Under the pieces are notes generated by a model. That model was not told the origin of the DNA and did no database searches. It saw only the letters and a list, made by a program, of their open reading frames with translations. The position numbers and the translations under genes were made by a program. From Eubacterium sp. (GTDB taxonomy: Bacteria > Bacillota > Clostridia > Lachnospirales > Lachnospiraceae), in the NCBI GenBank assembly GCA_036308545.1, contig JAXJVN010000005.1:33626-97625 (forward strand): a stretch of DNA of 64,000 bases, in the 5' to 3' direction. Positions 1,791-38,651 of this stretch are shown here, piece by piece (within the stretch, counting starts at the first letter, position 1; each line of letters starts with the position of its first letter).

Positions 1791-3016
1791 GTAATGTAAG
1801 CATCAGGGATGGCAGGCTCCAGAGAGAGCTGACCATTCTGACAGATATTTTTATAGATGAATATATGGCAAACGCCGATGAGGTTTCTCTGAAAGTCTAT
1901 CTTTTCCTGATCCGTCAGGCCCACAGCAGCGAAGGGCTTTCCTTCTCCCGCATAAAAGATACTCTGGATATATCTGACCGGCAGTTTAAAGATGCTTTGT
2001 CCTTTTGGGAACAGGCCGGTCTCCTCTCTTTTACCTTCCGCAAGGAGCGCGGAAAAGAAAAGATCCAGAATATTGAGCTGCTTCCGGTCCTGCCTCTGGA
2101 AGAAAACGAGACAGCGAGAAATTTTTTTGCCAGTTTGAACAGCACAATTCAAGAAGGAGAACCGGCTCCGGAATCTGCTTCTGACTCCGCTCCAAAAGCG
2201 GAAACCGGGAACAGTTCTGCCGAAAGCATGACAGGCAGAACGCCTTCCGATGAAGCAGGAAAAACCGGAGAATCAGGCCGCAGAGCTGCTACGGAGGAAA
2301 TCCCGGAGCTTTCTTCTTCCAGGATGAAAGAAATCAAGGATTCCAAAGAAGCCCGTCAGATTCTCTTCATCACAGAAGCTTACCTTGGCAAGCCTCTGAC
2401 TACGACCGACATGCGGAGGATTCTCTATCTCTATGATGGTCTTGGTTTTTCTTTTGACCTGATCGATTATCTGACGCAATATTGCGTAAACAAAGGAAAA
2501 ACGAGTCTGCGCTATATTGAAGCAGTCGGTCTTGCCTGGCATCGTCAGGGTATACGCACCCTGGAAGACGCGAAAGCATCAGCGGAATCTTCTGCCGGCA
2601 AACTTCATTATCAGATTTTCAGGTTTTTTGGAATCCGCAGTCACGAACCGACCAAACCGGAAATCCAGATTATGGACCGCTGGACAAAAGAATATGGCTT
2701 TACCTCAGAACTAATCAGTGAAGCTGCAAAACGGACTCTTGCCAAGACACATGAACCCAGTCTTAACTACGCCGACGGTATTCTGACCAGTTGGCACAAA
2801 GCCGGCGCAAAAAATCTGGACGATGTGGCCAGGCTCGACGCCGCCCATAAAGCCGAAACCGCTTATTCCGGCGCAAAGGAAACCTCGGCTTCCCGTTCTT
2901 CCTCTGCCCGTCAGGGAACAGCCAACCGGTTTAATGATTTTTCACAGCGGGATTATAATTACGATGCCATTTCCGGAGAACGGAAATCCGTTCCCAAGAA
3001 AAAACAAACCACGTAA
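1787..3016 (+). CDS. DnaD-domain replication initiation/restart protein (Firmicute DnaB/DnaD type)
   Basis: Two DnaD-like C-terminal repeats (YLTQYCVNKGKTSLRYIEAVGLAWHRQGI; LNYADGILTSWHKAGAKNLDD). Its ATG overlaps the murC stop (ATGA). Confidence 0.85.
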   Translation: MSNVSIRDGRLQRELTILTDIFIDEYMANADEVSLKVYLFLIRQAHSSEGLSFSRIKDTLDISDRQFKDALSFWEQAGLLSFTFRKERGKEKIQNIELLPVLPLEENETARNFFASLNSTIQEGEPAPESASDSAPKAETGNSSAESMTGRTPSDEAGKTGESGRRAATEEIPELSSSRMKEIKDSKEARQILFITEAYLGKPLTTTDMRRILYLYDGLGFSFDLIDYLTQYCVNKGKTSLRYIEAVGLAWHRQGIRTLEDAKASAESSAGKLHYQIFRFFGIRSHEPTKPEIQIMDRWTKEYGFTSELISEAAKRTLAKTHEPSLNYADGILTSWHKAGAKNLDDVARLDAAHKAETAYSGAKETSASRSSSARQGTANRFNDFSQRDYNYDAISGERKSVPKKKQTT

Positions 3017-3125
3017 AAGGAATGATCCGGTTCATTTTGCAATATTTTTTCATTGTATTGAACAGTGGACATATTCTAATATGAAAGAGAGCGGATCATA
3101 CCATAAAAAATGGAAAGGTTTTTCC

Positions 3126-4112
3126 ATGGCACTTACCAATACACAATATGACGCGATTATGCGTATATACAGCCAGCGCCAGTACAAAGCCCGTTACGAA
3201 CAGTCAAAGCGGCTGGAAGAAGTTGCAAAAAAAATTCCCAGAATCCCTGAGATTGATTCTGAAATTGCCTCCCTCTCTGTGCAGAAGGCAAAGTTTCTGC
3301 TGAAAAAATCCGGAGACGATCTGAATCTTGCTTCTTCTCTCTCGCTGCTTGATCAGGAACGGCAGGCACTGCTTAAAATGTACGGCTATCCCGCCGACTA
3401 TCTGGACATGCATTACAGCTGCCCCTTTTGCAAAGATACCGGCTATGTAAATAATCAGAAATGCAGCTGCTTTAAAAAGCTCGAGCTTTCCATGCTCTAT
3501 TCTGCTTCGCACCTGTCGCAGGAAACGGATGGTGAAAGCTTCGATAGTTTTTCCCTCGACCTCTACTCTGCAGAGAAAGGCAATGGCAGCTTATCTGCCA
3601 GGGACCTGGCGGCGGAAGCTTTGAAAGTTTCCAGGGATTTTGTCAGCAGTTTCGACGACAGTTACGAAAACCTGCTGCTAACAGGACCTGTTGGAGTGGG
3701 AAAAAGTTTTTTGTCCCACTGCATTGCACGTTCACTTCTGAATACCGGGCACGGAGTCGTCTATCTTTCGGCTTACGATCTCTTCAGTCTGCTCGGCAGG
3801 TATGAGTTCTCAGGACGGGGCGAGGATCCGGACGATAAAGCCCGTATCCGGGAGTCTCACGCCGCTCTTTTCGACTGCGATCTTCTGGTTATCGATGACC
3901 TGGGCACGGAAGTTTCCAATACATTCACCGTTTCCCAGCTCTTCCTGATCATGAACGACCGTTTTACCGCCAGAAAGCCCGTCGTTCTGTCAACCAATCT
4001 CACGCTGAATGAGATCCGTAATAAATATTCTGAAAGAATCGCATCCCGCATTGCCGGCAGTTACACAATTCTGCGAATGGCAGGAGACGATATCCGAATC
4101 CGTAAACATTAG
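3126..4112 (+). CDS. DnaI/DnaC-family helicase-loader ATPase
   Basis: Walker A LTGPVGVGKSF, Walker B LLVIDDLGTE, and an N-terminal CPFCKDTGY..CSC zinc module. Start taken at MALTNTQYD, preceded by GGAAAGG. Confidence 0.85.
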   Translation: MALTNTQYDAIMRIYSQRQYKARYEQSKRLEEVAKKIPRIPEIDSEIASLSVQKAKFLLKKSGDDLNLASSLSLLDQERQALLKMYGYPADYLDMHYSCPFCKDTGYVNNQKCSCFKKLELSMLYSASHLSQETDGESFDSFSLDLYSAEKGNGSLSARDLAAEALKVSRDFVSSFDDSYENLLLTGPVGVGKSFLSHCIARSLLNTGHGVVYLSAYDLFSLLGRYEFSGRGEDPDDKARIRESHAALFDCDLLVIDDLGTEVSNTFTVSQLFLIMNDRFTARKPVVLSTNLTLNEIRNKYSERIASRIAGSYTILRMAGDDIRIRKH

Positions 4113-25361: not shown

Positions 25362-26375
25362 TCAATCCTTATTACTGGGTTCCCACTCGCAGTAATCCGA
25401 CGCTTTTGTTCCTTCCGGAAGTTTTCCGCGGCTGTATTCGAGTTCAGGCGAGCGCATGCTGACGCGTACGCCGGAAGGAATAGACTGAACGACGAAGGTG
25501 TTGCCGCCGATGGTGACATCGTCTCCGATAATCGTCTCTCCGCCAAGGACAGACGCGTTGGAGTAAATGGTAACACGGTCCCCGATGGTAGGATGCCGCT
25601 TAACGCCTTTGAGTGCCTGGCCTTTTCTGGTGGACAGGCCGCCCAGCGTAACGCCCTGGTAAATCTTGGCGTTATCACCGATTATTGTCGTCTCACCGAT
25701 TACAATACCGGTTCCGTGATCGATGAAGAAGTATTTTCCTATTGTTGCTCCGGGATGAATATCGATTCCTGTAAGACTGTGGGCATGCTCTGTCATGATT
25801 CTTGGAATGAGCGGAACCTTGAGATCCCAGAGGACATGTGCAATCCGATAGGTCGAAATCGCGATAATGCCCGGATAGCTTAAGATGATCTCATCGTAAC
25901 CATACGCCGCCGGGTCACCATCCCAGGCAGCCTGGATATCGGTTGCCAGAATCTCCCTCAGCGCCGGAATTTCCTTCAGGAACTTATGTACAATTTCGGA
26001 GGCTTTTTCCAGCAGTTCGTCACGGGAAAGTCCTGCGTTCTCCTGATTAGACGGCAGCGCAATGGCAACCTGCTTGGTCAGATGATAATCAATAAACTCA
26101 ATTCTCTCTCCGATAATATAGCGAACATATTCACTGCGGACTCTTGTTTTGGAATAATATCCCGGAAAGAGTACCTGACGAACATTTTCCAAAATTTCAA
26201 TCAGCAGGGCACGGTTGAGAATGTTCTTTCCATTTAGTCTGGTACTGATCGGATACTCGTTATAGCTGTCAACAATGCGGTCAATCAGTTCATCCTCGGC
26301 ACCGTTTTTTCCAATCAGTCCAGGCGCATCTGGTTTTTCGTTATTATTTTGCAAAAAATCTGTTTCCCGGCTCAT
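25362..26375 (-). CDS. cysE: serine O-acetyltransferase
   Basis: Hexapeptide repeats and GIDIHPGATIGKYFFIDHGTGIVIGET, with an N-terminal SATase helical domain. Confidence 0.92.
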   Translation of the reverse strand: MSRETDFLQNNNEKPDAPGLIGKNGAEDELIDRIVDSYNEYPISTRLNGKNILNRALLIEILENVRQVLFPGYYSKTRVRSEYVRYIIGERIEFIDYHLTKQVAIALPSNQENAGLSRDELLEKASEIVHKFLKEIPALREILATDIQAAWDGDPAAYGYDEIILSYPGIIAISTYRIAHVLWDLKVPLIPRIMTEHAHSLTGIDIHPGATIGKYFFIDHGTGIVIGETTIIGDNAKIYQGVTLGGLSTRKGQALKGVKRHPTIGDRVTIYSNASVLGGETIIGDDVTIGGNTFVVQSIPSGVRVSMRSPELEYSRGKLPEGTKASDYCEWEPSNKD

Positions 26376-26462
26376 TATTTCCGCTCTTTCTTCCTATCTA
26401 AATGTATGGAAAGGCAATATTATACTGTGAGTGAGCATACCCGTTTGGTTCAGTGCTCGTGT

Positions 26463-26554
26463 AAAAAAAATCCCCGTGATAAATATAGACATCCGGCTTA
26501 TCCCTGCTTCAGGGAAGCGAAAGACAAGTCGATACCTATTCTAACACGGGGATT
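26463..26554 (-). terminator. complex terminator-like structure after the feo operon and upstream of cysE
   Basis: A 9-bp closing stem ATCCCCGTG / CACGGGGAT encloses about 66 nt, including an inner hairpin TCCCTG/CAGGGA. It is followed by T8 on the minus strand. Confidence 0.45.
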
Positions 26555-26584
26555 GATAAATTCCAACCGGAATAGTTTTTCCTG

Positions 26585-26854
26585 TTATTTTTTAAAGAAG
26601 CCTAACCTCTTTTTATCATAGGGTTCTTCTTTTACCGATTTCAAAGTATATCCTGTGGGGTCTATTGCCGCATGGAGCATCACTTCAAGTTCATTCCGGT
26701 CCTTATTTTCTTCCAGAAGAAAGGATGCTGTCCCTTTCCCACGATTTGCTTTAATCTTCGAAGCCTCCGGAATCCCTTTGCGGATGGCATCCTGTATATG
26801 GGATTCGCACATACCGCACATCATTCCTTCTACTTCTGCTGTGACTCTGACCAT
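26585..26854 (-). CDS. heavy-metal-associated (HMA) domain protein
   Basis: N-terminal VEGMMCGMCESHI, which is the GMxCxxC metal-binding loop. Confidence 0.8.
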   Translation of the reverse strand: MVRVTAEVEGMMCGMCESHIQDAIRKGIPEASKIKANRGKGTASFLLEENKDRNELEVMLHAAIDPTGYTLKSVKEEPYDKKRLGFFKK

Positions 26855-27045
26855 ATTTTATCCCAGTCTTTCTTCTTATTTATATTAGTGCAGCCGCTCG
26901 AGCAGGAACCGCAGCTTCCGCTGCAGCCTGAACAGGCTCCGCCGTTCAGCTGATTTTTAATATCCCGTATGCAGTAACGTCCGGCGAAAAAAACGGGAAC
27001 AGCCAATACAGCGATTACGATAATAGTTCCTATCATAGGGTTCAC
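26830..27045 (-). CDS. FeoB-associated Cys-rich membrane protein
   Basis: One N-terminal TM helix followed by GGACSGCSGSCGSCSSGC. It sits directly downstream of feoB. Confidence 0.8.
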   Translation of the reverse strand: MNPMIGTIIVIAVLAVPVFFAGRYCIRDIKNQLNGGACSGCSGSCGSCSSGCTNINKKKDWDKIWSESQQK

Positions 27046-27160
27046 CTCCTGTTCTCACGAATTCTTCATCGATATAATCAGTCGGAAACGGCTCCAGCCG
27101 CTCAAAAAGAACAGCTGAAGCCAAAGTTTCCTGATTCCTTCAAAAACTGTGAATTAATAG

Positions 27161-29455
27161 TTAGTTCTGAGATGCCTCAACAGAGGTAAGCGTACGCTCA
27201 TGCTCTTCCGGTACATAACCCTTGCGGACGAGTCCATAAACGATCAGGGCAATCAGGGCGATTGCTACTACTGTTCCGACTCCAAAGGTAAGTTCGCCGG
27301 TAGCAAGACCGATGATATTGTAGAAGATCAGTGCCAGGGAATATGCCCAGACAGTCATCCAGCCAATCGCGGCCCAGGTCCACTTGCGGTTGTTCATCTC
27401 ACGCTTGATTGCGCCGATTGCCGCAAAGCAGGGTGCGCACAGAAGGTTGAAGACCATGAAGGCGAACGCGGAAGCCGGCGTATAATCGGCAGCTACGCGG
27501 GCCCAGATTCCTTCACCATTATCTCCAAGTTCTTCTCCGGATGCCTCCTCGTCATAATTATACAGAACGCCGAAGGTTCCTACAACTTCCTCTTTTGCGA
27601 CAAGTCCCTGAACGGTTGCGACAGTAGGTTTCCAGCTTCCGAATCCGAGCGGACGGAAGACCGGAGATACCGCCTGACCGACAGATGCCAGGATGGAGTC
27701 ATCCATGGTGTTGACATCGTCAACCGAGACATTTCTCTTTTCAGCAAGCTCACTCAGGTAGGCGGTATTTTCCTCAATGCCCTGCTCTTCCCAGAGATTA
27801 TCAATCTTGCCGAACTGACCGTTTACAACACCGAAGCTGGACAGGAACCAGATTACGATAGTAGACAGAAGGATAACAGATCCTGCTCTCTTGATGAAGG
27901 ACCAGCCGCGCTCCCAGGTAGCGCGAAGAACGTTGCCTGCGGACGGAACGTGGTAAGCCGGAAGCTCCATAACGAAGGGCGCAGGCTCTCCCGCGAATGC
28001 CTTGAACTTCTTCAGGATGATACCGGACATAACAATGGAAGCCATGCCGATGAAGTATGCCGCTGCTGCGATGCCGGCGGATCCGCCGAAGATAGCGCCT
28101 GCGATCAGACCGATGATTGGAAGTTTTGCCCCGCACGGCATGAAGGTCGTGGTCATAACAGTTAATTTACGGTCACGGTCATTTTCAATGGTCCTTGTGG
28201 ACATGACGCCCGGAACACCGCATCCGGTAGCGACAAGCACCGGAATGAAAGATTTGCCGGAAAGTCCGAACTGGCGGAAAATACGGTCCATAACGAATGC
28301 GACACGGGCCATGTATCCGATATCTTCCAGGATTGCCAGGAAGAAGAACAGAACGAGCATCTGCGGTACGAAGCCAAGTACCGCGCCGACGCCGGCTACG
28401 ATACCATCCTGTACCAGGCTGTATACCCAGGAACCTTCTGCAACGCCGATGGCTCCGAGAATATTATCAAAGAGGGTCGGGACCCATTCGCCGAAGATTA
28501 CATCATTCGTGAAGTCCGTTGCCTTGGTACCGATTGAAATGCCCCAGCTTCCTACGGAGACTGCGTAAATCAGGAACATAATTCCGATAAAAATCGGAAG
28601 ACCGAGTACACGGTTGGTTACGATCTTATCGATCTTGTCGGAAACCGTCATTTTCTCCTGTCTCTTGGCCTTTACAACAGCTTCAGCGGTTACTTTTCCA
28701 ATGTAGTTGTATCTTTCATTTGTAATGATACTTTCAGCATCGTCTTCCTGACTTTTTTCAACCGCTTCGATGATCGGCTCAATTTTAGCGTTTTCACCGC
28801 TGCTGAGCTTGAGGTTCTTCAGAACCTTCTCGTCTCTTTCGAAAACCTTGATGGAATACCATCTGAGCAGTCTGTCGTCTACTTTGCCCTTCAGGACTTC
28901 TTCAATCTCTGCGAGTGCTTTTTCGACCTCATCACTGAAAACAACGGTATTGTCTACAGCTTTTTTGGACTTTGCGGCTTCCACTGCAAGCTGTGCAGCC
29001 TTATCCGTTCCTTCTTCTTTCAGAGCGGAAATTTCAACTGCCTGGCATCCCATCAGCTTGGCCAGCTTCTGGGTATCGATGGAGTCCTTGTTCTTGCGGA
29101 CCAGGTCCATCATGTTGACAGCCATGACGACAGGAATTCCCAGCTCAATCAGCTGAGTGGTCAGGTAAAGGTTACGCTCGATATTGGTACCATCGACGAT
29201 ATTCAGGATCGCGTCCGGCTTTTCATTTACCAAATACTGTCTGGAAACGACTTCCTCGAGTGTATAAGGTGAAAGGGAATAAATACCCGGAAGATCCTGA
29301 AGTACGACGTCCTTCTGATCCTTTACTTTTCCTTCCTTTTTTTCTACCGTAACGCCGGGCCAGTTTCCGACGTACTGATTTGCGCCGGTCAGTGCATTGA
29401 ACAGGGTTGTTTTTCCACAGTTCGGATTTCCGGCAAGTGCAATCTTAATTGCCAT
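27161..29455 (-). CDS. feoB: ferrous iron transporter FeoB
   Basis: G-domain motif GNPNCGKTTLFN followed by a polytopic membrane domain. Confidence 0.95.
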   Translation of the reverse strand: MAIKIALAGNPNCGKTTLFNALTGANQYVGNWPGVTVEKKEGKVKDQKDVVLQDLPGIYSLSPYTLEEVVSRQYLVNEKPDAILNIVDGTNIERNLYLTTQLIELGIPVVMAVNMMDLVRKNKDSIDTQKLAKLMGCQAVEISALKEEGTDKAAQLAVEAAKSKKAVDNTVVFSDEVEKALAEIEEVLKGKVDDRLLRWYSIKVFERDEKVLKNLKLSSGENAKIEPIIEAVEKSQEDDAESIITNERYNYIGKVTAEAVVKAKRQEKMTVSDKIDKIVTNRVLGLPIFIGIMFLIYAVSVGSWGISIGTKATDFTNDVIFGEWVPTLFDNILGAIGVAEGSWVYSLVQDGIVAGVGAVLGFVPQMLVLFFFLAILEDIGYMARVAFVMDRIFRQFGLSGKSFIPVLVATGCGVPGVMSTRTIENDRDRKLTVMTTTFMPCGAKLPIIGLIAGAIFGGSAGIAAAAYFIGMASIVMSGIILKKFKAFAGEPAPFVMELPAYHVPSAGNVLRATWERGWSFIKRAGSVILLSTIVIWFLSSFGVVNGQFGKIDNLWEEQGIEENTAYLSELAEKRNVSVDDVNTMDDSILASVGQAVSPVFRPLGFGSWKPTVATVQGLVAKEEVVGTFGVLYNYDEEASGEELGDNGEGIWARVAADYTPASAFAFMVFNLLCAPCFAAIGAIKREMNNRKWTWAAIGWMTVWAYSLALIFYNIIGLATGELTFGVGTVVAIALIALIVYGLVRKGYVPEEHERTLTSVEASQN

Positions 29456-29515
29456 CTTTCTCCTCCTCTTGCTGAATTCTATCTTTCACTGAATTCTGAT
29501 TTAAAAAAATGGTAT

Positions 29516-29737
29516 TTACTCTACCTCTACCATCTCGGCATCGCCTTTACGGACAGACAGTTCGTAATTGCGGATGGTAAGCTCCATTGGATCTCCTAAA
29601 GGGGCAACCTTGCGGACATAGATTTCAACACCTTTTGTGATGCCCATATCCATAATTCTGCGCTTGGTCGGTCCTTCGCCATGAAGTTTAACGACCTTAC
29701 AGGTAGCTCCAACCGGAACGTCTTTCAGGGTTTTCAT
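29516..29737 (-). CDS. feoA: FeoA family protein
   Basis: 73-aa SH3-like FeoA pattern (RRIMDMGITKGVEI). Confidence 0.9.
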   Translation of the reverse strand: MKTLKDVPVGATCKVVKLHGEGPTKRRIMDMGITKGVEIYVRKVAPLGDPMELTIRNYELSVRKGDAEMVEVE

Positions 29738-29765
29738 TTTTCTTTCCTCCTCCCCAAGTCTTCTA

Positions 29766-29984
29766 TTAAGGATTTACCATGATCTTAGAAGCCATTTCTT
29801 TTGTAAGAGCCAGCTTGGAATCTCTGATCTTCAGGATCATATTTCCGCCCGAAGTCTGAACGACAGTTACCTGAGTTTCCGGTGTAAATCCAAGATCCTC
29901 CAGGTGTTTCTTAATATCAGGAGATCCTGATACGCGGCCTACCGTTACGACCTCGCCGGCGTTAACCATAATAAGTGGAATCAT
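29766..29984 (-). CDS. feoA: FeoA family protein (second copy)
   Basis: 72-aa FeoA pattern (LEDLGFTPETQVTV). Confidence 0.9.
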   Translation of the reverse strand: MIPLIMVNAGEVVTVGRVSGSPDIKKHLEDLGFTPETQVTVVQTSGGNMILKIRDSKLALTKEMASKIMVNP

Positions 29985-30006
29985 CGTAAACCTCCAAAAA
30001 AAACAA

Positions 30007-30056
30007 ATTAGCTTACGCTAATCGTTAGTTTAGCTTTACTAACTTTCCTTTGTCAA
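30007..30056 (-). promoter_or_regulatory. feo promoter with two overlapping operator palindromes
   Basis: Minus-strand TTGACA (30051-30056), 18-nt spacer, TAAACT (30027-32). GTTAGT-N8-ACTAAC (30024-30043) covers the -10, and ATTAGC-N4-GCTAAT (30007-30022) covers the start region. Confidence 0.6.
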
Positions 30057-30117
30057 GGGGTTCGGCTCATCTTTCTAAAGAAATTATAAAAATCGTACGA
30101 ATTTTTTCCCAACTCAA

Positions 30118-30149
30118 TTGACAGTGATAGTTAGTTTGTATAAACTACA
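30118..30149 (+). promoter_or_regulatory. promoter of the AraC/ATPase operon with a related operator
   Basis: TTGACA (30118-23), 17-nt spacer, TAAACT (30141-46). GTTAGT-N8-ACTACA (30130-30149) overlaps the spacer and -10, and an extra GTTAGT half-site lies at 30155-60. Confidence 0.55.
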
Positions 30150-30315
30150 TTTGAAGTTAGTCCTTTCTTACTTTTATTGGTGTTATGTATGAATTTCGTA
30201 CCTGCAGCATTCTGAAGAGATGCACTCCCATCCTCTTTTATAGATGTGCCCTTGTTTTCTTAATCGGAGCGCATCCATGACAAGGCAGGCTCATTTTCTT
30301 TTAAGAGGTAAGTTT

Positions 30316-30678
30316 ATGAGTAACGTCACATTTGAAAATTATTCGCCTGCGCAGAAATCCCTGGCTGTTCAGATTGATTCCTTCCTGCGCTCCCACCTGG
30401 AAGAAAAAGTGACTATAGCCATGCTTGCAGATCAGTTTGAGTGCTCACCCACAACGATAAAAACAGCTTTTCGATCCTATTATGACCGGTCTGTATATTC
30501 TTCTTTCAAATCCATGAAGATGCGTGCAGCCGCCGAGGACCTCGCAGTTACAGACTGTTCCATCATGGCGATTGCAGCCAAGTATGGATACGTCAACTGC
30601 AGTAAATTTTCAGACGCTTTCCGCAAGGTCATGGGCAGCCTGCCCGGAAAATACCGCCGCGCAGCCCGAAAGAAATAA
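30316..30678 (+). CDS. AraC-family helix-turn-helix protein (DNA-binding domain only, 120 aa)
   Basis: HTH_18-like sequence (MLADQFECSPTTIKTAFRSYY ... IAAKYGYVNCSKFSDAFRKVMG). Start at MSNVTF, preceded by AAGAGG. Confidence 0.8.
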   Translation: MSNVTFENYSPAQKSLAVQIDSFLRSHLEEKVTIAMLADQFECSPTTIKTAFRSYYDRSVYSSFKSMKMRAAAEDLAVTDCSIMAIAAKYGYVNCSKFSDAFRKVMGSLPGKYRRAARKK

Positions 30679-30790
30679 AAAAATTTATGTCCTTTTGGAG
30701 TCTCTTTAAGCCTTTTTGGAGTAGAGACCGGTGCTCTGTTTTTTTAAAATTAATCTATTTAGAACAAACAACATATTCTTGGAGGATGAA

Positions 30791-30871
30791 ATGAAGTACC
30801 ATAAAGCATTTGCCTGGCTGACCGTTTTCTTTTTTCTGCTGACATTAATTGCCGGATACGAGAAGAAATAA
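30791..30871 (+). CDS. 26-aa hydrophobic micropeptide
   Basis: MKYHKAFAWLTVFFFLLTLIAGYEKK with GGAGGA 6 nt upstream. It is absent from the ORF track because of its size. Confidence 0.5.
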   Translation: MKYHKAFAWLTVFFFLLTLIAGYEKK

Positions 30872-30909
30872 AGTTTTAAGGGATTCTATCCTCAGAAAGG
30901 AAGAAAATT

Positions 30910-31176
30910 ATGAATTGGAAAAATGTAAGACTTGTAGCATGCGGAGCTCTTCTCAGCACACTGGGATATAGAATCGCTACCAGCAGGGACGCAAAGAAGG
31001 TTTATTCCTTCTTTACCGCCGCTGTAATCCGGGAGCGTGATTATATCATGAAAGGCGTCGACCACCTGAAGGAAAACGGCGGCGATATTCTTGCGGATGC
31101 CAAGGCCCGCAATGAAATGCTTGCTGCTGAAAAATCAGCCGTCATCAAAGATGAAGCTGAGGAAACCGAAGCTTAA
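30910..31176 (+). CDS. small membrane-anchored protein with an acidic C-terminus (PacL/DUF1490-like architecture)
   Basis: N-terminal hydrophobic helix VRLVACGALLSTLGY, a helical middle region (GGDILADAKARNEMLAAEK), and an acidic tail DEAEETEA. It ends 15 nt before the ATPase gene. Confidence 0.6.
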   Translation: MNWKNVRLVACGALLSTLGYRIATSRDAKKVYSFFTAAVIRERDYIMKGVDHLKENGGDILADAKARNEMLAAEKSAVIKDEAEETEA

Positions 31177-31190
31177 GGAAGCAGCTGCCA

Positions 31191-33308
31191 ATGAAATGCA
31201 GAATTCTTTATGATGCACACGGACGGCTCCGTGTGCATCTTTTACAAAAAGAGATGAGCTGTGCCCAGGCGGACATTCTGGAAGCCTACCTGAAGGGGCA
31301 GACCGGCGTCGTTTCTGTAAAGGTCTACCCCAGAAACGCAGATGCCGCAATTCAGTATCATGGCAGCCGTTCCGCCCTGGTCCATGCCCTGGCAGTTTTT
31401 TCTTATAAGAAAAATAAAGACCTGGCTCCGGAACACAGCAGCCGCGCACTCAGTATGGAATATGAGAACAAGCTGGCGGATGTAATTATGGGCAGAGTGG
31501 TAAGCAGGTTCTTCCTGCCCTTCCCCATTCGCTATGCGATTGCCATCTGGAATACCGGCAGATACATCTTCAGAGCTATCCGTTCTCTTGGACACAAACG
31601 CCTGGAAGTACCGGTCCTGGATGCTACTGCGATTACCGTATCTATGCTGCGGGGCGATGTAGAGACTGCCACTTCTGTCATGTTCCTTCTTCATATCGGA
31701 GACATTCTGGAAGAATGGACCCACAAGAAGTCCGTTGCCGATCTGGCAGGAGCTATGAGTCTCGGAGTCGACCGGGTCTGGGGCAGATCAGAGGACGGAC
31801 CGGACGTGCAGATGTCTGTTCATGATGTACAAACCGGTGCTCAGATTATAATCGGAACGGGCGGAATGATACCGCTGGACGGTCTGGTCATCGAAGGAGA
31901 AGCAAGCGTCAACCAGTCCGCCATGACCGGAGAATCCCAGCCTGTCCTGAAAAAGAACGGGAGCTATGTCTACGCCGGCACTGTGCTGGAGGAAGGCCGG
32001 CTGGTTGTCCGGGTTGAAAAAGAAGCCGGAAGCGGACGCTATGATTCGATTGTTCATATGATTGAAGATTCCGAGAAGCTGAAATCTTCTACCGAAGACA
32101 AAGCCTCTCATCTTGCAGACCGGCTGGTTCCCTACAGTCTTGGCGGGACTCTGCTGACCTGGCTTCTGACTCAGAACGCCGCGAAAGCGCTCTCCATCCT
32201 CATGGTCGACTTTTCCTGCGCCCTTAAGCTTTCCATGCCGCTGGCTGTCCTGTCTGCCATGCGTGAGGCAAACGCATACAATATCAGCATAAAAGGTGGA
32301 AAATTCATGGAAGCTGTTTCAAATGCGGATACCATCGTATTTGACAAGACCGGTACGCTTACCCATGCCCAGCCAAAAGTCGCAATGGTCATTCCTTTCG
32401 GGGATACCGATGAACAGGAAGCGCTCCGTCTGGCTGCCTGCCTGGAAGAACACTATCCTCATTCCATGGCGAAAGCGGTCGTAGCCGAAGCCAAAAAACG
32501 CGGACTTAATCACGAAGAGCGGCATACGGAAGTCCAGTATATTGTAGCCCATGGAATTGCAAGCACCGTCAGCGGACAGAAAGTCGTTATCGGCAGCTAT
32601 CACTTTGTCTTCCAGGATGAAGGCTGCACCATACCGGAGTACGAAATGGAGAAATTCCATAGTCTTCCGGGAGAGTATTCTCACCTTTTCCTTGCAGTAG
32701 CGGGAAAACTGACCGCCGTTATCTGTGTGGAAGATCCGCTGCGAACGGAAGCTCCCGATGTGATCCGGGCTCTTAGAAAAGCCGGTTTCCGCAAACTTGT
32801 TATGATGACCGGAGATAATGCGAAGACAGCAGAAGCTGTTGCAAAAAAAGTCGGCGTCGATGAAGTATATTCCGAAGTTCTTCCGGAAGACAAGGCCGAA
32901 TTTATCCGACGAGAACATGCTGCCGGCCGGACCGTGATGATGGTTGGAGACGGCGTAAACGATTCTCCTGCTCTATCTGCAGCAGACGTAGGCATCTCCA
33001 TAAGCGACGGGGCAGCCATTGCACGTGAAATAGCCGATATCTCCCTCACGTCAGACAGCCTCTACTCTATTGTGACGCTGAGGAAACTCAGTGACGCGCT
33101 GATGGCCCGTATCCATTTTAATTACCGAACCATCATAAGCTTCAACTCCATGCTGATCCTTCTAGGCGTTGCCGGTATAATCGCCCCGCAGACTTCTGCA
33201 CTGCTGCATAACCTGTCGACTATAGCGATCAGCCTTAAGAGTACAACAAAACTGCTGGAGGAAGGCAGAGAAACCGAAGCCTGTCGAACGGAATCTTTGC
33301 CTGCTTAA
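31191..33308 (+). CDS. P1B-type heavy-metal ATPase with an S-C-A transmembrane motif
   Basis: DKTGTLT, MMTGDN and GDGVNDSPAL are present. FSCALKLSMP lies 43 aa before DKTGT, where CPC normally sits. The N-terminal domain is HMA-like but has no CxxC. Confidence 0.9.
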   Translation: MKCRILYDAHGRLRVHLLQKEMSCAQADILEAYLKGQTGVVSVKVYPRNADAAIQYHGSRSALVHALAVFSYKKNKDLAPEHSSRALSMEYENKLADVIMGRVVSRFFLPFPIRYAIAIWNTGRYIFRAIRSLGHKRLEVPVLDATAITVSMLRGDVETATSVMFLLHIGDILEEWTHKKSVADLAGAMSLGVDRVWGRSEDGPDVQMSVHDVQTGAQIIIGTGGMIPLDGLVIEGEASVNQSAMTGESQPVLKKNGSYVYAGTVLEEGRLVVRVEKEAGSGRYDSIVHMIEDSEKLKSSTEDKASHLADRLVPYSLGGTLLTWLLTQNAAKALSILMVDFSCALKLSMPLAVLSAMREANAYNISIKGGKFMEAVSNADTIVFDKTGTLTHAQPKVAMVIPFGDTDEQEALRLAACLEEHYPHSMAKAVVAEAKKRGLNHEERHTEVQYIVAHGIASTVSGQKVVIGSYHFVFQDEGCTIPEYEMEKFHSLPGEYSHLFLAVAGKLTAVICVEDPLRTEAPDVIRALRKAGFRKLVMMTGDNAKTAEAVAKKVGVDEVYSEVLPEDKAEFIRREHAAGRTVMMVGDGVNDSPALSAADVGISISDGAAIAREIADISLTSDSLYSIVTLRKLSDALMARIHFNYRTIISFNSMLILLGVAGIIAPQTSALLHNLSTIAISLKSTTKLLEEGRETEACRTESLPA

Positions 33309-33767
33309 TTGCAGCTATCTGAAGTTTAAGGAATCTTCCATCAGGTATCCGGCATGCATTCTTTTACATTTTAATCTCAGTTCTGCCTGTCCAGGCACAA
33401 CGGAACATCCTTTTTCTTCAGGGATTTCCGTCATGAAGGGCAGGCAGATTTTTTTGTTCTTCTCCATTCCGCACTTTTGTACAGAGCAGGCATTTGTTTT
33501 CAAAGATGTTTTTACCTGGGTTCCGGAAATTCATTCTCTTCCTTACAAAATATGGCTGTTTCACAGCTGTCTTTCCGTTCTTGCCGTCTTCTGAGGAAAT
33601 CGGATCATGGTCTGTACAAAAGTGCGCAATATGACCCTTCACTTTTCTTCATGGCGTCGATTTACAAGCCTTCTGCCAGCCATTATCATATAGATAGTGA
33701 ATATATTTTCTATCCATTGTGCGATAAATGGAAGGAAATTCGAATTCAAAAGAGGAGGTAATTTACG

Positions 33768-34832
33768 ATGCTTACAGCAAAGGAAAACTTTATCCAGTGT
33801 GTGGAAGGCGGAACGCCTGACCGTGCCGTCAATAACTACGAAGCAATCAAGCTTCTGATGAATCCCTTCGCAATGTTCCATAATCCAAGACCTAAGTTCC
33901 CAGGTGACACACCGCAAAAGAACGCCTGGGGCGTCCTCTATGAGTATCCGGAAGGCGTACCGGCAAGCTTCCCGGTCCACAAACCCGACACCATTGTCAT
34001 TCAGGACATTGAGCACTGGCAGGATTACGTGCACGCTCCGTCTCTCGACTTCCCGGATGAAGAATGGGACAAAGTAAAAGAGATGTATGACGCCGTAGAT
34101 ACCACCAAGGCATTCAAGGCTACGTTTATCGCACCCGGACTGTTTGAGCAGTGCCATCATTTAGGAGAAATTGCCAATACCTGCATGAATCTGGCAGAGT
34201 ATCCGGACGAGATGGAAGACCTGATCAAGTACATTACCGAGTGGGAGCTGAAGCTTGCAGAACTGATCTGTGAAAAGCTCCATCCCGAAATGCTCTTCCA
34301 TCATGACGACTGGGGCAGCCAGAAATCCACCTTCATGAGCGTCGGAATGTTCGAAGAATTCTTTGTAGAGCCCTACAAGCAGATTTACGGATATTATCAC
34401 GATCACGGCGTAAAATATGTCGTTCATCATTCCGATTCTTATGCGGCAACCCTCGTTCCGGACATGATCGAGATGGGAATCAATGTATGGCAGGGATGCT
34501 TCACCACCAACCATATCGATGAGCTGATTGCCAAATACGGCGACAAGATTTCCTTCATGGGCGGCATTGAGAACATGCTGGTAGACCACGAAGGATGGAC
34601 CGACGAAGAGATTGACGGCGTTGTAGATCGTACCATCGGGAAATACGGAATCAAACACTTCATTCCGTGTATCGCACAGGGCGGTCCGGGGTCTACATGG
34701 CCGGGCGTATATGAAAGCCTGATCCGTTCCGTCGACGAATACAACTGCAAGCACTACGGCTTTACCATGGACGAGCTCGAAAATGCCCGTATTCCGGGAG
34801 CTGCAGGCGTTATGTTCGGATCCAAGAAGTAA
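33768..34832 (+). CDS. uroporphyrinogen decarboxylase (URO-D) family methyltransferase-like protein
   Basis: URO-D/MtaA-like blocks HHDDWGSQ, VVHHSDSY and INVWQG, with a strong AGAGGAGG Shine-Dalgarno. Confidence 0.8.
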   Translation: MLTAKENFIQCVEGGTPDRAVNNYEAIKLLMNPFAMFHNPRPKFPGDTPQKNAWGVLYEYPEGVPASFPVHKPDTIVIQDIEHWQDYVHAPSLDFPDEEWDKVKEMYDAVDTTKAFKATFIAPGLFEQCHHLGEIANTCMNLAEYPDEMEDLIKYITEWELKLAELICEKLHPEMLFHHDDWGSQKSTFMSVGMFEEFFVEPYKQIYGYYHDHGVKYVVHHSDSYAATLVPDMIEMGINVWQGCFTTNHIDELIAKYGDKISFMGGIENMLVDHEGWTDEEIDGVVDRTIGKYGIKHFIPCIAQGGPGSTWPGVYESLIRSVDEYNCKHYGFTMDELENARIPGAAGVMFGSKK

Positions 34833-34885
34833 TGAGATTAACAGCAAGAGGATGCCCGCCGGATTTCCGGCGGGCATCCTCTTGT

Positions 34886-36511
34886 TCATTTATTTTTATC
34901 CATTTCCTTGCTTTCTTCGCCCTTTTCCAGGTCTTCAACGCTGCGCATCATGTAATAAGAAATCAAAAGTTTCAGTTTTGTCTTGGAATCGTCCAGATCC
35001 ATGTTGATAATTTTCTGGATTCTTGTCAGACGATAAGTAAGCGTACTCCTGTGTATAAATAATTCTTTTGACGTGCGAAGAACGTTTTCTTGGAGATTCA
35101 GATAAACCTCCAGAGTATGATAAAGTTCAGAATGATTTTCCTCGTCAAATTTTTTCAGCTTTCTTAAGGCTTCCGCGCAAAGCAGACGGGCGGGAATCTC
35201 CTTTGACGTACAGTCTATCATGTAATCCAGCATGTAATCGTCAAAATAAAAATACCAGAGCATACTCTGACCTGCAAGTCCGAACTCCAGTGCATTTTTT
35301 GCCTGCCTGTAAGCAGATGCAAGGTCTCTGAAGTCCTGCACTTCTGTGCTGACCCCTATTTTCAGAAGACTGTCCCTGATCAGAATGGCAAGCCCCTGTA
35401 CTACGTCTGCAGCAGTCGTGTGGGTATAGGAAAGATTGACAATAACCGTAATGCCGTCTTCGTAAAAAAAAGCTCTGGACTGCGGTGCGTTATTTTCAAT
35501 CTGGCTCAGCATGGCATCAGCAGAAATCTGGTTGAAGTCTTCGTGTTCCGTCCTCATCCGAAGACAAATATAACGGTCATGAAGCTTCCAGTTAAGCAAA
35601 TTCAAATTTCTGGCAATCTCTCTTTCCTCTACCGATTCCCGCTGGATCATCTGAGCAAAAAACTCTTCCGTACGATCTTCGTTATCGAGTCTGACCAGTC
35701 TCCTTTCTCTGGTATAGAATTCAAGGAGACGGCCCATGTATTCCATGGCGTGGAAGTCGCCCGGGTAAAGTGGATTTTTCACTTCGTCGACCAGAATTCT
35801 TCCGAGATACTGGTTATTATTCCAGAGATTCCGGTAAAGAATCCGATAGCCGGTCTGGTTGGCAGAGAACATCTGAGGAGTATGCGTCTTCAATCCCTCC
35901 AGATATTCATGATCCGTCCGGAAGTCGTTGATCGTCTCCAGATTAACCATAGTCCTGCCTGTTCTTTTGTCCTTGTCCCATTTGGTCATTTCCGGCTGAT
36001 GTTCGGGATCTGACAGGATAAAAAAATGCTGATCATGAATAAACATGGGATTCCGGAAAATCGGTATGCTTGCCTTCAGCATATCGTCAAGAGGATGCGG
36101 TCCGTTCAGGGCCCGCTGCAGTTTAAAATCCCACTCACTGTACTGAAGGAACGTATCCTGGGCAAGTTCCAGCGTATCCATCATGTCGCATCTCTGATGG
36201 ATCACGATCATTGGCATACCGTAATTCTGGACCGGCGGCATGTAATCGCCGAAAACAACAAAAGTAAAAAGCTTTCCTGCTCCTTCTCTCTTAACCATTT
36301 CTTCTGCGGTTATAAAATACACCGTATCCCGTTTCAATATCCTGCCGGGTTTGTACAGGCGAGCGGCAGCTAATTGGGACCTTTCCTTGCCCGGGTAATA
36401 AAAGATCTCAAGCCCCGATCGGATCAGACTGTCCGCGATGATCCGGAGATTCATCAGGAAACCAACCTGAAATTCTGTTTGTTCCGTCTTCTGATTTGTA
36501 TTGGAAATCAT
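34886..36511 (-). CDS. PucR/CdaR-family transcriptional regulator
   Basis: C-terminal PucR HTH sequence LFIHRSTLTYRLTRIQKI. Confidence 0.8.
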   Translation of the reverse strand: MISNTNQKTEQTEFQVGFLMNLRIIADSLIRSGLEIFYYPGKERSQLAAARLYKPGRILKRDTVYFITAEEMVKREGAGKLFTFVVFGDYMPPVQNYGMPMIVIHQRCDMMDTLELAQDTFLQYSEWDFKLQRALNGPHPLDDMLKASIPIFRNPMFIHDQHFFILSDPEHQPEMTKWDKDKRTGRTMVNLETINDFRTDHEYLEGLKTHTPQMFSANQTGYRILYRNLWNNNQYLGRILVDEVKNPLYPGDFHAMEYMGRLLEFYTRERRLVRLDNEDRTEEFFAQMIQRESVEEREIARNLNLLNWKLHDRYICLRMRTEHEDFNQISADAMLSQIENNAPQSRAFFYEDGITVIVNLSYTHTTAADVVQGLAILIRDSLLKIGVSTEVQDFRDLASAYRQAKNALEFGLAGQSMLWYFYFDDYMLDYMIDCTSKEIPARLLCAEALRKLKKFDEENHSELYHTLEVYLNLQENVLRTSKELFIHRSTLTYRLTRIQKIINMDLDDSKTKLKLLISYYMMRSVEDLEKGEESKEMDKNK

Positions 36512-36624
36512 AAAAAAGCTCCTGCCCTGTCATAAGATCCTTCAAAAAACATCTATTCTGCCAGAATAAATATCAATGCTCTTACTTTAAAATAGGGATC
36601 CTCATGATTTGAACATTCTGTATA

Positions 36625-36667
36625 GCAATCTTTCCTGAAACACAAGAAGGAGGATGTCTTAAAGACA
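36625..36667 (-). terminator. terminator of the GPH transporter gene
   Basis: GGAGGATGTC / GACATCCTCC followed by TTCTTGTGTTT on the minus strand. Confidence 0.75.
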
Positions 36668-36719
36668 TCCTCCCATATTATAGCAAATTATTGAATTCCC
36701 GTCTGAGAATTGTCAAAGG

Positions 36720-38126
36720 TCAGGCCTTTCTGGCTGCAATCTCAGCGGAATATTTCTCGACCTTATCCTTGGTAAGACGGAATCCGAAAACAACCAGGCA
36801 TCCGGCAATAATCAGCGCAACCGCCGGTACAAGAATGAAGGCGTTCGTGCAGGCCCTCTTCAGTTCTTCTGTAGCATCTCCTGCCGCAATATCCGGTGAG
36901 AAATGAGCAGCTGCAAGGCAGCCATTGATAATAATTCCTCGCGTAAGGATAGAAACCTTAAGCGGAACATTCTGAAGTCCGGAAATCCATCCTGTAGCAT
37001 TCTTTCCGGTCTTCCACTCGGAATAAATAATGGTATCTGCGTAAAGGGCCGGAGTAGCTGCATAAGCAATTCCGTATCCGAACTGGGCAACAGACATCAG
37101 AATAATGACCGCCGTTACGTTCGTATACATGAAGTTGGCGATGAGCATGAAAACAGCCATCAGGAAGAAGGTACAGAAGGTAGTTGTTCTGGTCGAGAGC
37201 TTCTTTGAGAAGAACTTGGAGCAATAAGAACCAATCACGCAAAGGATGTTGGAAATCAGGATATATCTGGACATAAGACCCGGATTTCCTGCAACATAGG
37301 TGAAGTAATAAACCGCAGCGCCCATGCAGACGAAGTTGAACATCCACTTAGCAACATCGGATAAAAGCAGAGCAATCAGAGGCGGGTTCTGCGCCAGTGC
37401 CTTCAGAAGGTCTCCGCCGCTGGTCCTGGAGGTATCCTTTTTCGCAGTCTGTCCATCTGTCTCCACTTCTTCATATCCTTCGAACATCTTGAAGTGGCAG
37501 AAGTAAAGGGCAAACATAACCCAGGCAAGTACGAAAGCCGTAGCGCCCCACTGGTTAGTCTCGCTCAGGTGTGCCGCAAAGAATGCTGCAATCGGCGGTC
37601 CTACATAAGCGAAAAGAATCTTGGACAGATTGCCCCAGGCAGCTCTTGTAGATGCCAGCTGAGCACGATCCTCAGGCGTCTTTCCTGCAACAGCAATCAT
37701 AGAAACATTTGCAACATAAGGGAAGTTCCAGCATACATGGCTGAGTACTGCCGCAATCAGAACGACTGCTGCGGAAACTGCTACGTTATCGGAAACCTTG
37801 ATAAACTGGAAGGCAAAAATAAAAGGTACCAGCCAGGTGATCAGGATCAGCCAGGAACGATAGCGCCCCCATTTCTTCGGCTTGATGCTGTTCAGGACCG
37901 CTCCGTATATCCAGGAAAGCGCGGCATCAATGCCGGAGAAGACCGTTGCGATTGTCGTAACGACTCCCAGCGGAAATGCTGCAAGGTTGGTCAGGAAGAA
38001 GTTGAAATAGTAGCTTTCAACATTTGTCATCAACGAAAATCCGCAATCGCCGACGCCGTAAAAAATCTTCAGTGCGCCGCTTAATGGTTTCGCCTGGCCG
38101 TTTTTGTTGGCAGTTGCTTCACTCAT
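36720..38126 (-). CDS. MFS/GPH-family (glycoside-pentoside-hexuronide type) cation symporter
   Basis: About 12 TM segments with an N-terminal FYGVGDCGFS motif. Start taken at MSEATANK, preceded by AGAGGAGG. Confidence 0.8.
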   Translation of the reverse strand: MSEATANKNGQAKPLSGALKIFYGVGDCGFSLMTNVESYYFNFFLTNLAAFPLGVVTTIATVFSGIDAALSWIYGAVLNSIKPKKWGRYRSWLILITWLVPFIFAFQFIKVSDNVAVSAAVVLIAAVLSHVCWNFPYVANVSMIAVAGKTPEDRAQLASTRAAWGNLSKILFAYVGPPIAAFFAAHLSETNQWGATAFVLAWVMFALYFCHFKMFEGYEEVETDGQTAKKDTSRTSGGDLLKALAQNPPLIALLLSDVAKWMFNFVCMGAAVYYFTYVAGNPGLMSRYILISNILCVIGSYCSKFFSKKLSTRTTTFCTFFLMAVFMLIANFMYTNVTAVIILMSVAQFGYGIAYAATPALYADTIIYSEWKTGKNATGWISGLQNVPLKVSILTRGIIINGCLAAAHFSPDIAAGDATEELKRACTNAFILVPAVALIIAGCLVVFGFRLTKDKVEKYSAEIAARKA

Positions 38127-38651
38127 TATGAATTCCTCCTCTTTCATAGTATTTATACAAAGGACAATCCGCTGCCTTTGTATATCTCTGATAATTTTCA
38201 GTATATGCTTTCGGCATCTTAGGGTAAATCCGCATTAGTGTGAAGAAGTTCCTTGGTTATTCCGCAATTTTGTATAGTCTTGTCTTTTTCACTCCTCTGC
38301 ACCCTCCGGTTTCTATTTCTTTATGACATCTTTCCGACTTATGTGGAGAATTTGGGTATTCTGACTGTTTTTTCAGGGTTATTTCTGTATTTATCCGTCA
38401 TATTTTTCTTCCGTTTTTCCTTTTTGTTTCCGACAATTTTATATTTTCTTTATTTTTGAATCTTTGCCTCCGCCTGTTCATTTATTACCTCTCCCGTGAT
38501 AAAAGCAGCTTTTCGGTTTCTCCGCATTATTTCGGATGCATTTGCGCCTTTCTTATGCTATGTTAGTAATTGTTATTAACAGAAGTCTGATTCTTACCTT
38601 AGCCGTTTGTTCTTCTTTTTTGAGAATGCGGTTCAAACCGGAGGCAGTGCC

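Follow-up and report, generated by a model that had tools for sequence, protein, structure and literature searches.

Which metal, and which kind of transport system, a P1B-type ATPase serves when its gene lies back to back with ferrous iron uptake genes is the question raised by a locus in a 64,000-nucleotide (nt) stretch of a Eubacterium sp. genome (assembly GCA_036308545.1, contig JAXJVN010000005.1, positions 33,626 to 97,625), hereafter called the window. The ATPase gene is the last of four plus-strand open reading frames (ORFs), and is preceded by those for an AraC-type protein consisting of its helix-turn-helix (HTH) region only, a 26-amino-acid (aa) peptide and an 88-aa protein. A first-pass annotation, made from the DNA letters alone, had called these same four ORFs, all of which were recovered at identical coordinates, and had read them as an uncharacterised Firmicute counterpart of the mycobacterial PacL-pump platform, with iron or a competing metal as substrate. 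Our analysis indicates that the locus is quite probably a minimal ferrosome (fez) module of gut or rumen anaerobic Clostridia, back to back with feoA-feoA-feoB. Ferrosomes are lipid-bounded iron-phosphate storage organelles of anaerobes, and P1B-6 ATPases, called FezB, are their pump (Grant & Komeili, bioRxiv 10.1101/2020.01.10.902569). The description of the system as uncharacterised fails because the ATPase falls in the characterised FezB subgroup, an outcome that the annotation itself had named as speaking against it, and the co-occurrence of the 88-aa protein's family (DUF6110) with P1B-6 ATPases in Firmicutes was published in 2022. The core of the picture, namely the PacL-like idea, the SCA-motif subgroup and the iron link, has thus been known since 2020-2023, while the 26-aa gene, the HTH-only form of the AraC-type regulator, a promoter box and operator-like footprints appear to be new details and are modest additions.

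The ATPase contains the core motifs VFDKTGTLT, MMTGDNA and GDGVNDSPAL, which had already been noticed in the sequence, along with E1-E2_ATPase and Hydrolase domains (Pfam/NCBIfam). Its fourth transmembrane helix (TM4) reads VDFSCALKLSMP, in which DFSCA occupies residues 340-344 and S342 lies exactly 43 residues before D385 of DKTGT, just as first described; TM6 carries HNLST (residues 673-677), which conforms to HNxxT, and the N-terminus carries the R-rich motif GRLRVH (residues 11-16), with no CxxC in residues 1-90. FezB is defined by D[Y/F]SCA in TM4, HNxxT in TM6 and an N-terminal R-rich motif (bioRxiv 10.1101/2020.01.10.902569). The window's triplet, DFSCALK / HNLST / YDAHGRLRVHLL, can be set beside DFSCALK / HNLST / HESRGRLRVHVC for F. 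prausnitzii (Grant & Komeili Supplementary Table 1, bioRxiv 10.1101/2020.01.10.902569), and equivalent triplets are listed in the same work for Ruminococcus, Anaerotruncus, C. difficile and D. magneticus FezB. For a wider comparison, one genome per species was scanned with an alignment of DUF6110; 392 genomes held a relative, and the best 80 loci plus one close relative (81 loci) were analysed; these, like the metagenome loci mentioned below, are designated by L numbers. D[FY]SCA stood at the identical 43-residue distance from DKTGT in all 71 complete ATPases, the window's included; HNxxT was found in TM6 of 70 of them, the remaining one being cut by a contig end, and RxR in 69 of 72 scanned ATPase ORFs, the misses being two with an unassignable start and one non-FezB ATPase. 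From these signature motifs, together with 50-67% identity to ATPases from genera that appear among the listed FezB homologues, we assign the ATPase to P1B-6/FezB, and the SCA-motif subgroup suspected at the outset is accordingly this one. An AlphaFold2 model built with 25 homologues gave residues 1-70 a beta-beta-alpha-beta-beta-alpha topology (pLDDT ~80), ferredoxin/HMA-like and without CxxC. Pfam HMA and HMA_2 do not match this domain, and for this reason the label 'HMA-like' is taken from the model alone; the fold that had been proposed for these 70 residues is supported by the model and not by the domain profiles, and CxxC is indeed missing. The PDB holds no P1B-6 structure, and the best match there was CopA (3rfu).

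The 88-aa protein belongs to Pfam DUF6110 (PF19605; 78.2 bits against a cut-off of 26, E=5.4e-22, residues 4-86 of 88), a family that had been named beforehand as a candidate. An AlphaFold2 model of low confidence (pLDDT 64) is all-helical, with a membrane helix at residues 3-24 and a further, long and presumably cytosolic helix at 26-87, and the sequence ends in the acidic tail KDEAEETEA, with no His or Cys; this agrees with the N-terminal helix, helical middle and acidic tail read from the letters. The acidic tail was present in all 73 distinct DUF6110 proteins, with His or Cys within the last 20 residues in 14 of them. The N-terminal helix contains G12-A-L-L-S16-T-L-G19, i.e., GxxxS..G, a small-xxx-small motif. 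DUF6110 proteins were introduced as relatives of mycobacterial PacL (DUF1490) that are found mainly in Firmicutes, lack the metal-binding motif and are typically encoded with P1B-6 ATPases (Boudehen 2022, PMC9374683), and papers after PMC9374683 named them PacL-like. Pfam DUF1490 gave no match to the 88-aa protein at E<=1, the PacL-type C-terminal metal-binding motif (e.g., DLHDHDH) is not in it, and no NCBIfam model matched either it or the 26-aa peptide. When 73 DUF6110 sequences were aligned with 18 DUF1490 (PacL) sequences by hhalign, the result was colinear but weak (probability 14%, P=0.002) and paired DILADAK with DVVAEAK. The proposed PacL counterpart therefore survives in part: the likeness of architecture holds, and DUF6110 is the published PacL-like partner of P1B-6 pumps, but membership of DUF1490 does not hold and the metal-binding motif is missing.

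The same family is known under a second name. A small hydrophobic GxxxG protein resembling FezA is encoded in nearly every fez cluster (bioRxiv 10.1101/2020.01.10.902569), and E. eligens EUBELI_00577 (114 aa, LFAAGVLFGTAGIK) is both a member of Grant's GxxxG group 2-2 and DUF6110 protein C4Z4A6 in Boudehen's table. The window's 88-aa protein matches C. difficile DUF6110 protein Q189E0 by BLASTP (E=3e-12). Q189E0 is listed beside the P1B-6 pump Q189D2 (Boudehen Supplementary Data 1, PMC9374683), fezA and fezB are adjacent genes in C. difficile according to papers citing Pi 2023, and from the adjacency to the P1B-6 pump we infer that Q189E0 is FezA. The PacL-like (DUF6110) and FezA literatures thus cover identical Firmicute proteins, and linking them could help the field.

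The pairing of the two genes is conserved. A word-index protein search returned 6 DUF6110 matches and 1 peptide match, and scans of genome and metagenome DNA were used instead. These showed a DUF6110 gene followed directly by a P1B ATPase gene in 78 of the 81 loci, usually 40-80 nt apart and with ATPases 50-67% identical to the window's, an arrangement which at this frequency is far from chance. The exceptions included L049, at a contig end, and L021, an orphan gene. In the latter, the one clear exception, the DUF6110 gene (L021:6001-6240) has no P-type ATPase within 6 kb and a ParB-like gene in its region. In the window itself the gap between the peptide gene and fezA is 38 nt and that between fezA and fezB is 14 nt. 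Gut Oscillospiraceae, Ruminococcus, Faecalibacterium and Lachnospiraceae are already listed, both in Grant & Komeili's motif tables and in Boudehen's DUF6110 tables (bioRxiv 10.1101/2020.01.10.902569; PMC9374683). Some loci had further features. Lachnospiraceae bacterium AC2029 (JNLK01000001.1; L037 and L065) has two complete DUF6110-FezB-peptide modules ~550 kb apart, in each of which the 26-aa gene overlaps the ATPase stop. Two Lachnospiraceae-like loci (L098:4094-4507 and L111:480-893) have, between fezA and the peptide gene, an additional gene for a 137-aa protein with a FezB-like N-terminus, the R-rich stretch RIRIRLR and weak HMA_2 and HMA matches, which is probably one of Grant's 'R-rich' fez proteins. 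Four Faecalibacterium loci (L053:5738-5794, L056:5728-5784, L064:5734-5790 and L075:5741-5797) have an 18-codon hydrophobic ORF (MVYYGLAMVVLIDLFHLA) with a Shine-Dalgarno (SD)-like site ~210 nt upstream of the DUF6110 gene, the conservation of which says little because the species are closely related.

The iron uptake genes on the opposite strand are a recurrent neighbour. FeoB was found within the flanks (up to 6 kb) in about one tenth of the genome loci, and feoB was linked to fez in L018, L031, L045, L081, L085, L093, L100 and L127; feo genes stand beside fez genes not only in the window but also in L081 and L162-165, which are its relatives, and in several distant loci. Several metagenome loci have the co-oriented order feoA-feoA-feoB-araC-peptide-fezA-fezB, and the feoB homologue in L162 has FeoB_N, FeoB_Cyto, Gate and FeoB_C domains. 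Published fez clusters likewise lie near feoA/feoB, Fur and DtxR genes (bioRxiv 10.1101/2020.01.10.902569). The divergent feoAAB operon fits iron as the substrate, and iron, which had been suggested earlier alongside a competing metal, is the probable one. Where the feo side ends, the ORF for a 71-aa Cys-rich membrane protein overlaps by 25 nt that for an 89-aa HMA protein, with which the unit closes, and homologues of the 89-aa protein occur beside DUF6110/ATPase pairs in L003, L004, L009, L040, L042, L045, L046, L082 and L162. Together, the 71-aa and 89-aa proteins may correspond in function, in split form, to FezC's HMA part. In the metagenome locus L112 (L112:1193-1573) a membrane helix, a Cys-rich stretch and an HMA domain are united in one 126-aa protein, encoded directly after fezB and a 26-aa gene.

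We next consider how the module might be regulated. The AraC-type protein has HTH_18 at residues 37-115 of 120, with HTH_18/HTH_AraC matching over 24-115 and no N-terminal domain by Pfam; its ORF encodes 120 aa from the ATG at 30316 and 144 aa from an upstream ATG at 30244. In 22 of the 81 loci an AraC homologue is encoded immediately upstream of the fez genes, a number that rises to 32 loci when a metagenome set derived from the peptide (below) is added. Of these 32 homologues, 14 are HTH-only (111-166 aa, nearly all with the peptide) and 18 are full length (250-341 aa), the N-terminal domain being ExsA_N-like in Ruminococcus flavefaciens. AraC-family genes are among the frequent fez neighbours in the table of Grant & Komeili (bioRxiv 10.1101/2020.01.10.902569). 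When the stretches that separate the AraC gene from the fez gene after it were aligned, a common box emerged, GGAG[CT]NGA[AG]N, with a -10-like hexamer beyond a 17-nt spacer (also written GGAGYNGARA-N17-TAnnWT). It was present in 23 of 28 loci with an adjacent AraC gene vs 5 of 66 without one (Fisher p=1.4e-12), always with the 17-nt spacing, at a background rate of 0.006 per 325 nt, and the window has a single copy of it, against 0.04 expected, which lies between araC and the peptide gene. The last six bases of the box sit at the -35 position and make a poor -35 hexamer, which is what an activator-dependent promoter would show, and we predict that the AraC protein binds this box, GGAGTAGAGA. 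A reading of GAGACCGGTGCTCTGTTTTTTT as a terminator between araC and the peptide gene was dropped; the scan did not call it, and the part conserved across loci is the promoter box, not a hairpin.

The intergenic region between feoA and araC contains two further conserved elements. The blocks 30005-30056 and 30115-30165 are 100% identical to those of the relative L081 (88% identity), while the rest of the intergenic DNA has diverged, and the feoA and araC promoter-like sites in them have the common form TTGACA-N17/18-TAAACT. The first block holds the palindromes TTAGCTTACGCTAA (30008-30021), an exact palindrome found once in the window, and GTTAG..CTAAC; of the 4 copies of AGTTAGT in the 64 kb, 3 fall between feoA and araC. 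Palindromes of a related kind, TTAGC/GCTAA, are found upstream of HTH-only araC genes in L001, L093 and L092. As judged from these footprints, the blocks are likely a shared operator, and a candidate site for a possibly iron-responsive repressor. Rfam, run with permissive settings over 26000-34000, gave no riboswitch or other known RNA.

The 26-aa ORF is preceded by GGAGG, five bases 5' of its start at 30791, in agreement with the strong SD sequence reported for it before. A peptide hidden Markov model (HMM) built from tblastn matches hit 13 of the 81 fez loci, so that the expected conservation of the micropeptide was found, though in a part of the loci. In eight of them (L001, L003, L004, L015, L017, L025, L043 and L081) the peptide gene lies upstream of the DUF6110 gene, as in the window, and in four (L032, L036, L037 and L065) it overlaps or follows the ATPase stop. 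Set against its counterpart in the 88%-identical relative, the ORF differs by four synonymous and two conservative substitutions, whereas the DNA upstream is scrambled. Among 53 distinct DNA versions of the peptide, the mean pairwise differences at codon positions 1, 2 and 3 were 5.75, 2.68 and 13.1, length and stop position were fixed, an SD-like sequence was present in 42 of 44 distinct contexts, and His4, Ala8, Trp9 and Gly22 were invariant. Because of the third-position bias, the fixed length and stop and the SD-like sites, we regard the ORF, on sequence evidence, as a genuine protein-coding gene. A word search of protein catalogues found one cluster among 5.8 billion sequences, and 1.84 billion representatives gave 12 weak matches, almost all over-extended ORFs of 30-78 aa, two being long unrelated proteins; this near-absence is presumably because 26 codons are too short for most gene callers.

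A metagenome scan that started from the peptide returned 80 loci with 33 distinct peptides, of which 18 loci (12 peptides) were linked to fez genes and 62 had no fez genes within 4 kb. In the window-type 'FAWLT' subfamily, 9 of 11 variants were fez-linked; the random expectation is ~0.3% by our own estimate, which assumes one fez locus with an 8-kb span in a ~3-Mb genome. The gene order was peptide, 137-aa R-rich HMA_2-like protein, DUF6110 and FezB in L098 and L111, and FezB, peptide and TM-Cys-rich-HMA fusion in L112. Elsewhere the peptide lies by TSCPD, NifX-like, DegV or integrase genes. The peptide is thus strongly enriched at fez modules, and is neither universal nor exclusive there. Apart from these, in L116:3122-4081, L124:3131-4081 and L137:2654-3607 the 26 residues, still starting Met-Lys, form the in-frame C-terminus of ~317-aa MBL-fold hydrolases, that of L116 being flanked by TSCPD and NifX-like genes; here the peptide would be either a membrane anchor or a product separately translated from an internal start. 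In L133 a peptide homologue (1379-1456) lies ~440 nt upstream of a different P1B-type ATPase gene (1894-3768), whose 624-aa product lacks an N-terminal domain and shares 29% identity with the window's ATPase. Peptide relatives score 15-23 bits against Pfam DUF6219 (PF19727; cut-off 27), at profile positions 1-24 or 28-50, and because they align to either half of this 69-position model, DUF6219 looks like a tandem of the peptide unit; the window's own peptide gave no DUF6219 match. Two other origins were considered and rejected: as a relative of DUF4405/FezC the peptide had no Pfam match beyond sub-threshold DUF6219, and as a paralogue of the DUF6110 N-terminal helix it failed in that its HMM does not match DUF6110 ORFs.

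These observations can be combined into a proposed mechanism. FezB would use ATP to move cytosolic Fe(II) across the membrane into the lumen of a vesicle, where the iron would precipitate with phosphate, and FezA would stabilise and cluster the pump and help to shape the membrane, much as PacL scaffolds CtpC; the part of scaffold or stabiliser that PacL plays is, by analogy, a plausible model for FezA. The HTH-only AraC protein would be driven by a strong promoter whose conserved operator is similar in kind to that of the feoA promoter, and the level of the protein would be the signal because it has no sensing domain. The AraC protein would activate the weak promoter at GGAGTAGAGA, from which the peptide gene, fezA and fezB would be transcribed as one unit, and the fez operon would in this way be switched on with feo through a repressor and an HTH-only AraC activator. 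Experimental support comes from related systems. The fez genes are needed for ferrosome formation in four species (Grant & Komeili, bioRxiv 10.1101/2020.01.10.902569; Pi 2023, as given in citing papers), the fez operon of S. putrefaciens suffices in E. coli (bioRxiv 10.1101/2020.01.10.902569), and for C. difficile papers citing Pi 2023 state that FezA and FezB are required for ferrosomes and are Fur-repressed, one such paper adding that the two together give ferrosome foci in E. coli.

Several points weigh against reading the locus as a ferrosome module regulated in this manner. Ferrosomes and iron transport in this organism are predicted from its genes, the ATPase is placed by motifs, and its AlphaFold2 model is of low confidence in the membrane part. 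Fe(II) transport by any FezB is itself a model and not a measured activity (bioRxiv 10.1101/2020.01.10.902569). An exact GxxxG is found in 69 of 73 distinct DUF6110 relatives, and the window protein is among the four with GxxxS. The promoter box may be the site of a factor other than the AraC protein. No Fur box matched at 11/15 or better in the feoA-araC intergenic region, and the DtxR/IdeR consensus reached only 13/19, no better than elsewhere in the window; with no Fur box and with DtxR-like matches at chance level, iron-responsive control of the locus is something that we can only infer.

Of the other functions that the pump and its partner might have, one is a PacL-type efflux platform in which the DUF6110 protein would be chaperone or scaffold to a plasma-membrane exporter of Zn, Co, Ni or another metal, like PacL1-CtpC in M. 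tuberculosis. The common architecture and colinear alignment of DUF6110 and DUF1490 speak for such a platform, as do the published PacL-like name and the fact that CtpC has been called P1B-6-like and exports zinc (PMC9374683). We nevertheless consider it very improbable, given the weakness of the profile match between the families, with no Pfam DUF1490 hit, and the missing C-terminal His/Asp metal-binding motif; in addition, the pump has SCA where CtpC has CPC, the characterised SCA/HNxxT pumps are FezB (bioRxiv 10.1101/2020.01.10.902569), and the neighbours are iron uptake genes, not metal-resistance regulators. Less remote, though still improbable, is a plasma-membrane Fe(II) efflux pump that acts against excess iron, PfeT-like in function, with a small stabilising partner and no organelle. 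The iron context with its divergent feo operon would suit it equally, P1B ATPases normally export from the cytosol, and sequence cannot reveal organelle formation; set against this, every tested member of the motif subgroup with a small partner makes ferrosomes (bioRxiv 10.1101/2020.01.10.902569, and papers citing Pi 2023), and a candidate operator common to fez and feo, if it switches both on together, would fit storage after uptake better than export. A minimal ferrosome module is therefore the reading that we retain for the pump and its DUF6110 partner.

The role of the 26-aa product is less settled. There is a substantial chance, if somewhat short of an even one, that the ORF has nothing to do with the pump and encodes a leader peptide with a regulatory role, or else a small membrane peptide of a generic kind that is there by chance or descent, as might be expected from the 62 metagenome loci free of fez genes, from homologues at the C-terminus of MBL-fold hydrolases and by TSCPD, NifX-like and DegV genes, and from its occurrence in only 13 of 81 fez loci. 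The leader role is excluded, however, because the sequence is kept while changing operon side in different lineages, standing upstream of fezA in some and over the fezB stop in others. Coding selection, with its third-position bias and fixed length and stop, and the linkage to fez of 12 of 33 variants, and of most in the window's subfamily, against the small fraction expected, likewise speak against an unrelated peptide, and the product is probably an accessory membrane partner of the fez module. A bolder combination, in which an unannotated ferrosome accessory peptide (either a KdpF/sarcolipin-like subunit of FezB/FezA or a His-bridged heme dimer that replaces the FezC cytochrome) goes together with an HTH-only AraC protein at the -35 box replacing direct Fur control, seems unlikely to us as a whole. 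Its heme-binding element is speculation; in cytochrome b559 a dimer bridges heme through a single His. Were it true, Clostridial ferrosome modules would have an unannotated accessory component and AraC-based rather than direct Fur control.

The coordinates of the features are collected in Table 1. On the 3' side of fezB (33768-38147) lie a URO-D-family gene, a gene for a PucR-type regulator (GGDEF_2 + HTH_30) and one for an MFS_2 transporter, all of which are kept in L081 and have no evident link to fez.

Table 1. Features of the fez-feo locus, in coordinates of the window
Feature	Position	Strand	Evidence or details
AraC/XylS-family HTH-only regulator	30316..30678	+	120 aa; Pfam HTH_18 E=4e-17, nearly whole protein
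Putative fez promoter: box GGAGTAGAGA over -35, 17-nt spacer, -10 TAAAAT	30718..30750	+	
26-aa single-pass membrane peptide gene (MKYHKAFAWLTVFFFLLTLIAGYEKK)	30791..30871	+	HMM, codon-position differences, SD-like sites
fezA-like gene, 88-aa DUF6110 protein	30910..31176	+	Pfam, BLASTP, AlphaFold2
fezB, 705-aa P1B-6 P-type ATPase	31191..33308	+	TIGR01525 E=1e-145, signature motifs
fezB motifs	GRLRVH 31221-31238, DFSCA 32208-32222, DKTGT 32343-32357, HNLST 33207-33221		
araC promoter-like block, two AGTTAGT repeats	30115..30165	+	TTGACA-N17-TAAACT at 30118-30146
feoA promoter-like block	30005..30056	-	TTGACA-N18-TAAACT, 30056 to 30027; promoter scan
Two feoA genes, 29516-29737 and 29766-29984	29516..29984	-	Pfam FeoA E=2e-20 and 1e-17
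feoB, ferrous iron uptake permease/GTPase, 764 aa	27161..29455	-	ORF
FeoB-associated Cys-rich membrane protein, 71 aa	26830..27045	-	Pfam FeoB_associated E=2e-7
Soluble HMA-domain protein with MCGMC, 89 aa	26585..26854	-	Pfam HMA E=3e-6

As organelles of bacteria, ferrosomes have been recognised only recently; they help C. difficile to survive when the host restricts iron. The locus adds little to the ferrosome picture as such; what it offers is two testable additions to the Clostridial fez module, the 26-aa gene and the candidate AraC-type activator site.

Both additions have partial parallels in known systems. Like MarA and SoxS, the window's AraC protein consists of the two-HTH DNA-binding domain only. 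In class II mar/sox promoters the activator box overlaps the -35 region, and the candidate box here does likewise over a poor -35 hexamer. The protein is not a MarA/SoxS orthologue, as its NCBIfam scores are far below the cut-offs; its box is unrelated to the marbox, and its orthologues in other fez loci keep an N-terminal domain. Micropeptide partners of P-type ATPases include KdpF in KdpFABC, sarcolipin and phospholamban with SERCA, and FixS/CcoS beside FixI. The 26-aa product resembles KdpF/sarcolipin-type peptides in its size, in its single membrane pass and in that its gene shares an operon with that of a P-type ATPase; unlike them, it also occurs away from any ATPase.

For the core genes, the M. 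tuberculosis PacL1-CtpC pair, known as the 'effluxosome', follows the same plan, in which the gene just upstream of that for a P1B pump encodes a small protein that crosses the membrane once and has a Glu/Ala-rich cytosolic helix, and CtpC shares with the window's pump the HN motif and an N-terminal domain without CxxC, although the sequence similarity between PacL1 (DUF1490) and DUF6110 is marginal. The fezABC genes of D. magneticus and the six-gene fez operons of S. putrefaciens and R. palustris share with the window's FezB the D[Y/F]SCA, HNxxT and R-rich N-terminus, and share with the locus a small hydrophobic partner of the GxxxG type, which in the window reads GxxxS..G, and frequent feo and AraC-family neighbours. 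Compared with them, the window is without FezC (HMA plus a two-helix heme-binding membrane domain), DUF4405, FezD-G and a second ATPase; its sole HMA protein, unlike FezC, is soluble, 89 aa long and placed at the far end of the feo unit, and D. magneticus FezA is of GxxxG subgroup 2-4 where the window-type family is 2-2. C. difficile FezA/FezB differ from the window in that FezA is 131 aa against 88 aa, with a different tail and the GxxxG kept, and in that Fur control is described for them in papers citing Pi 2023, whereas the feoA-araC intergenic region of the window yielded no Fur box, and fezA comes after an HTH-only AraC gene, a conserved promoter box and the 26-aa gene. Like the window, C. 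difficile has a Firmicute module of two genes, one for a small membrane protein of the DUF6110 type and, after it, one for a P1B-6 ATPase that carries DFSCALK and HNxST, and both modules are linked to iron homeostasis.

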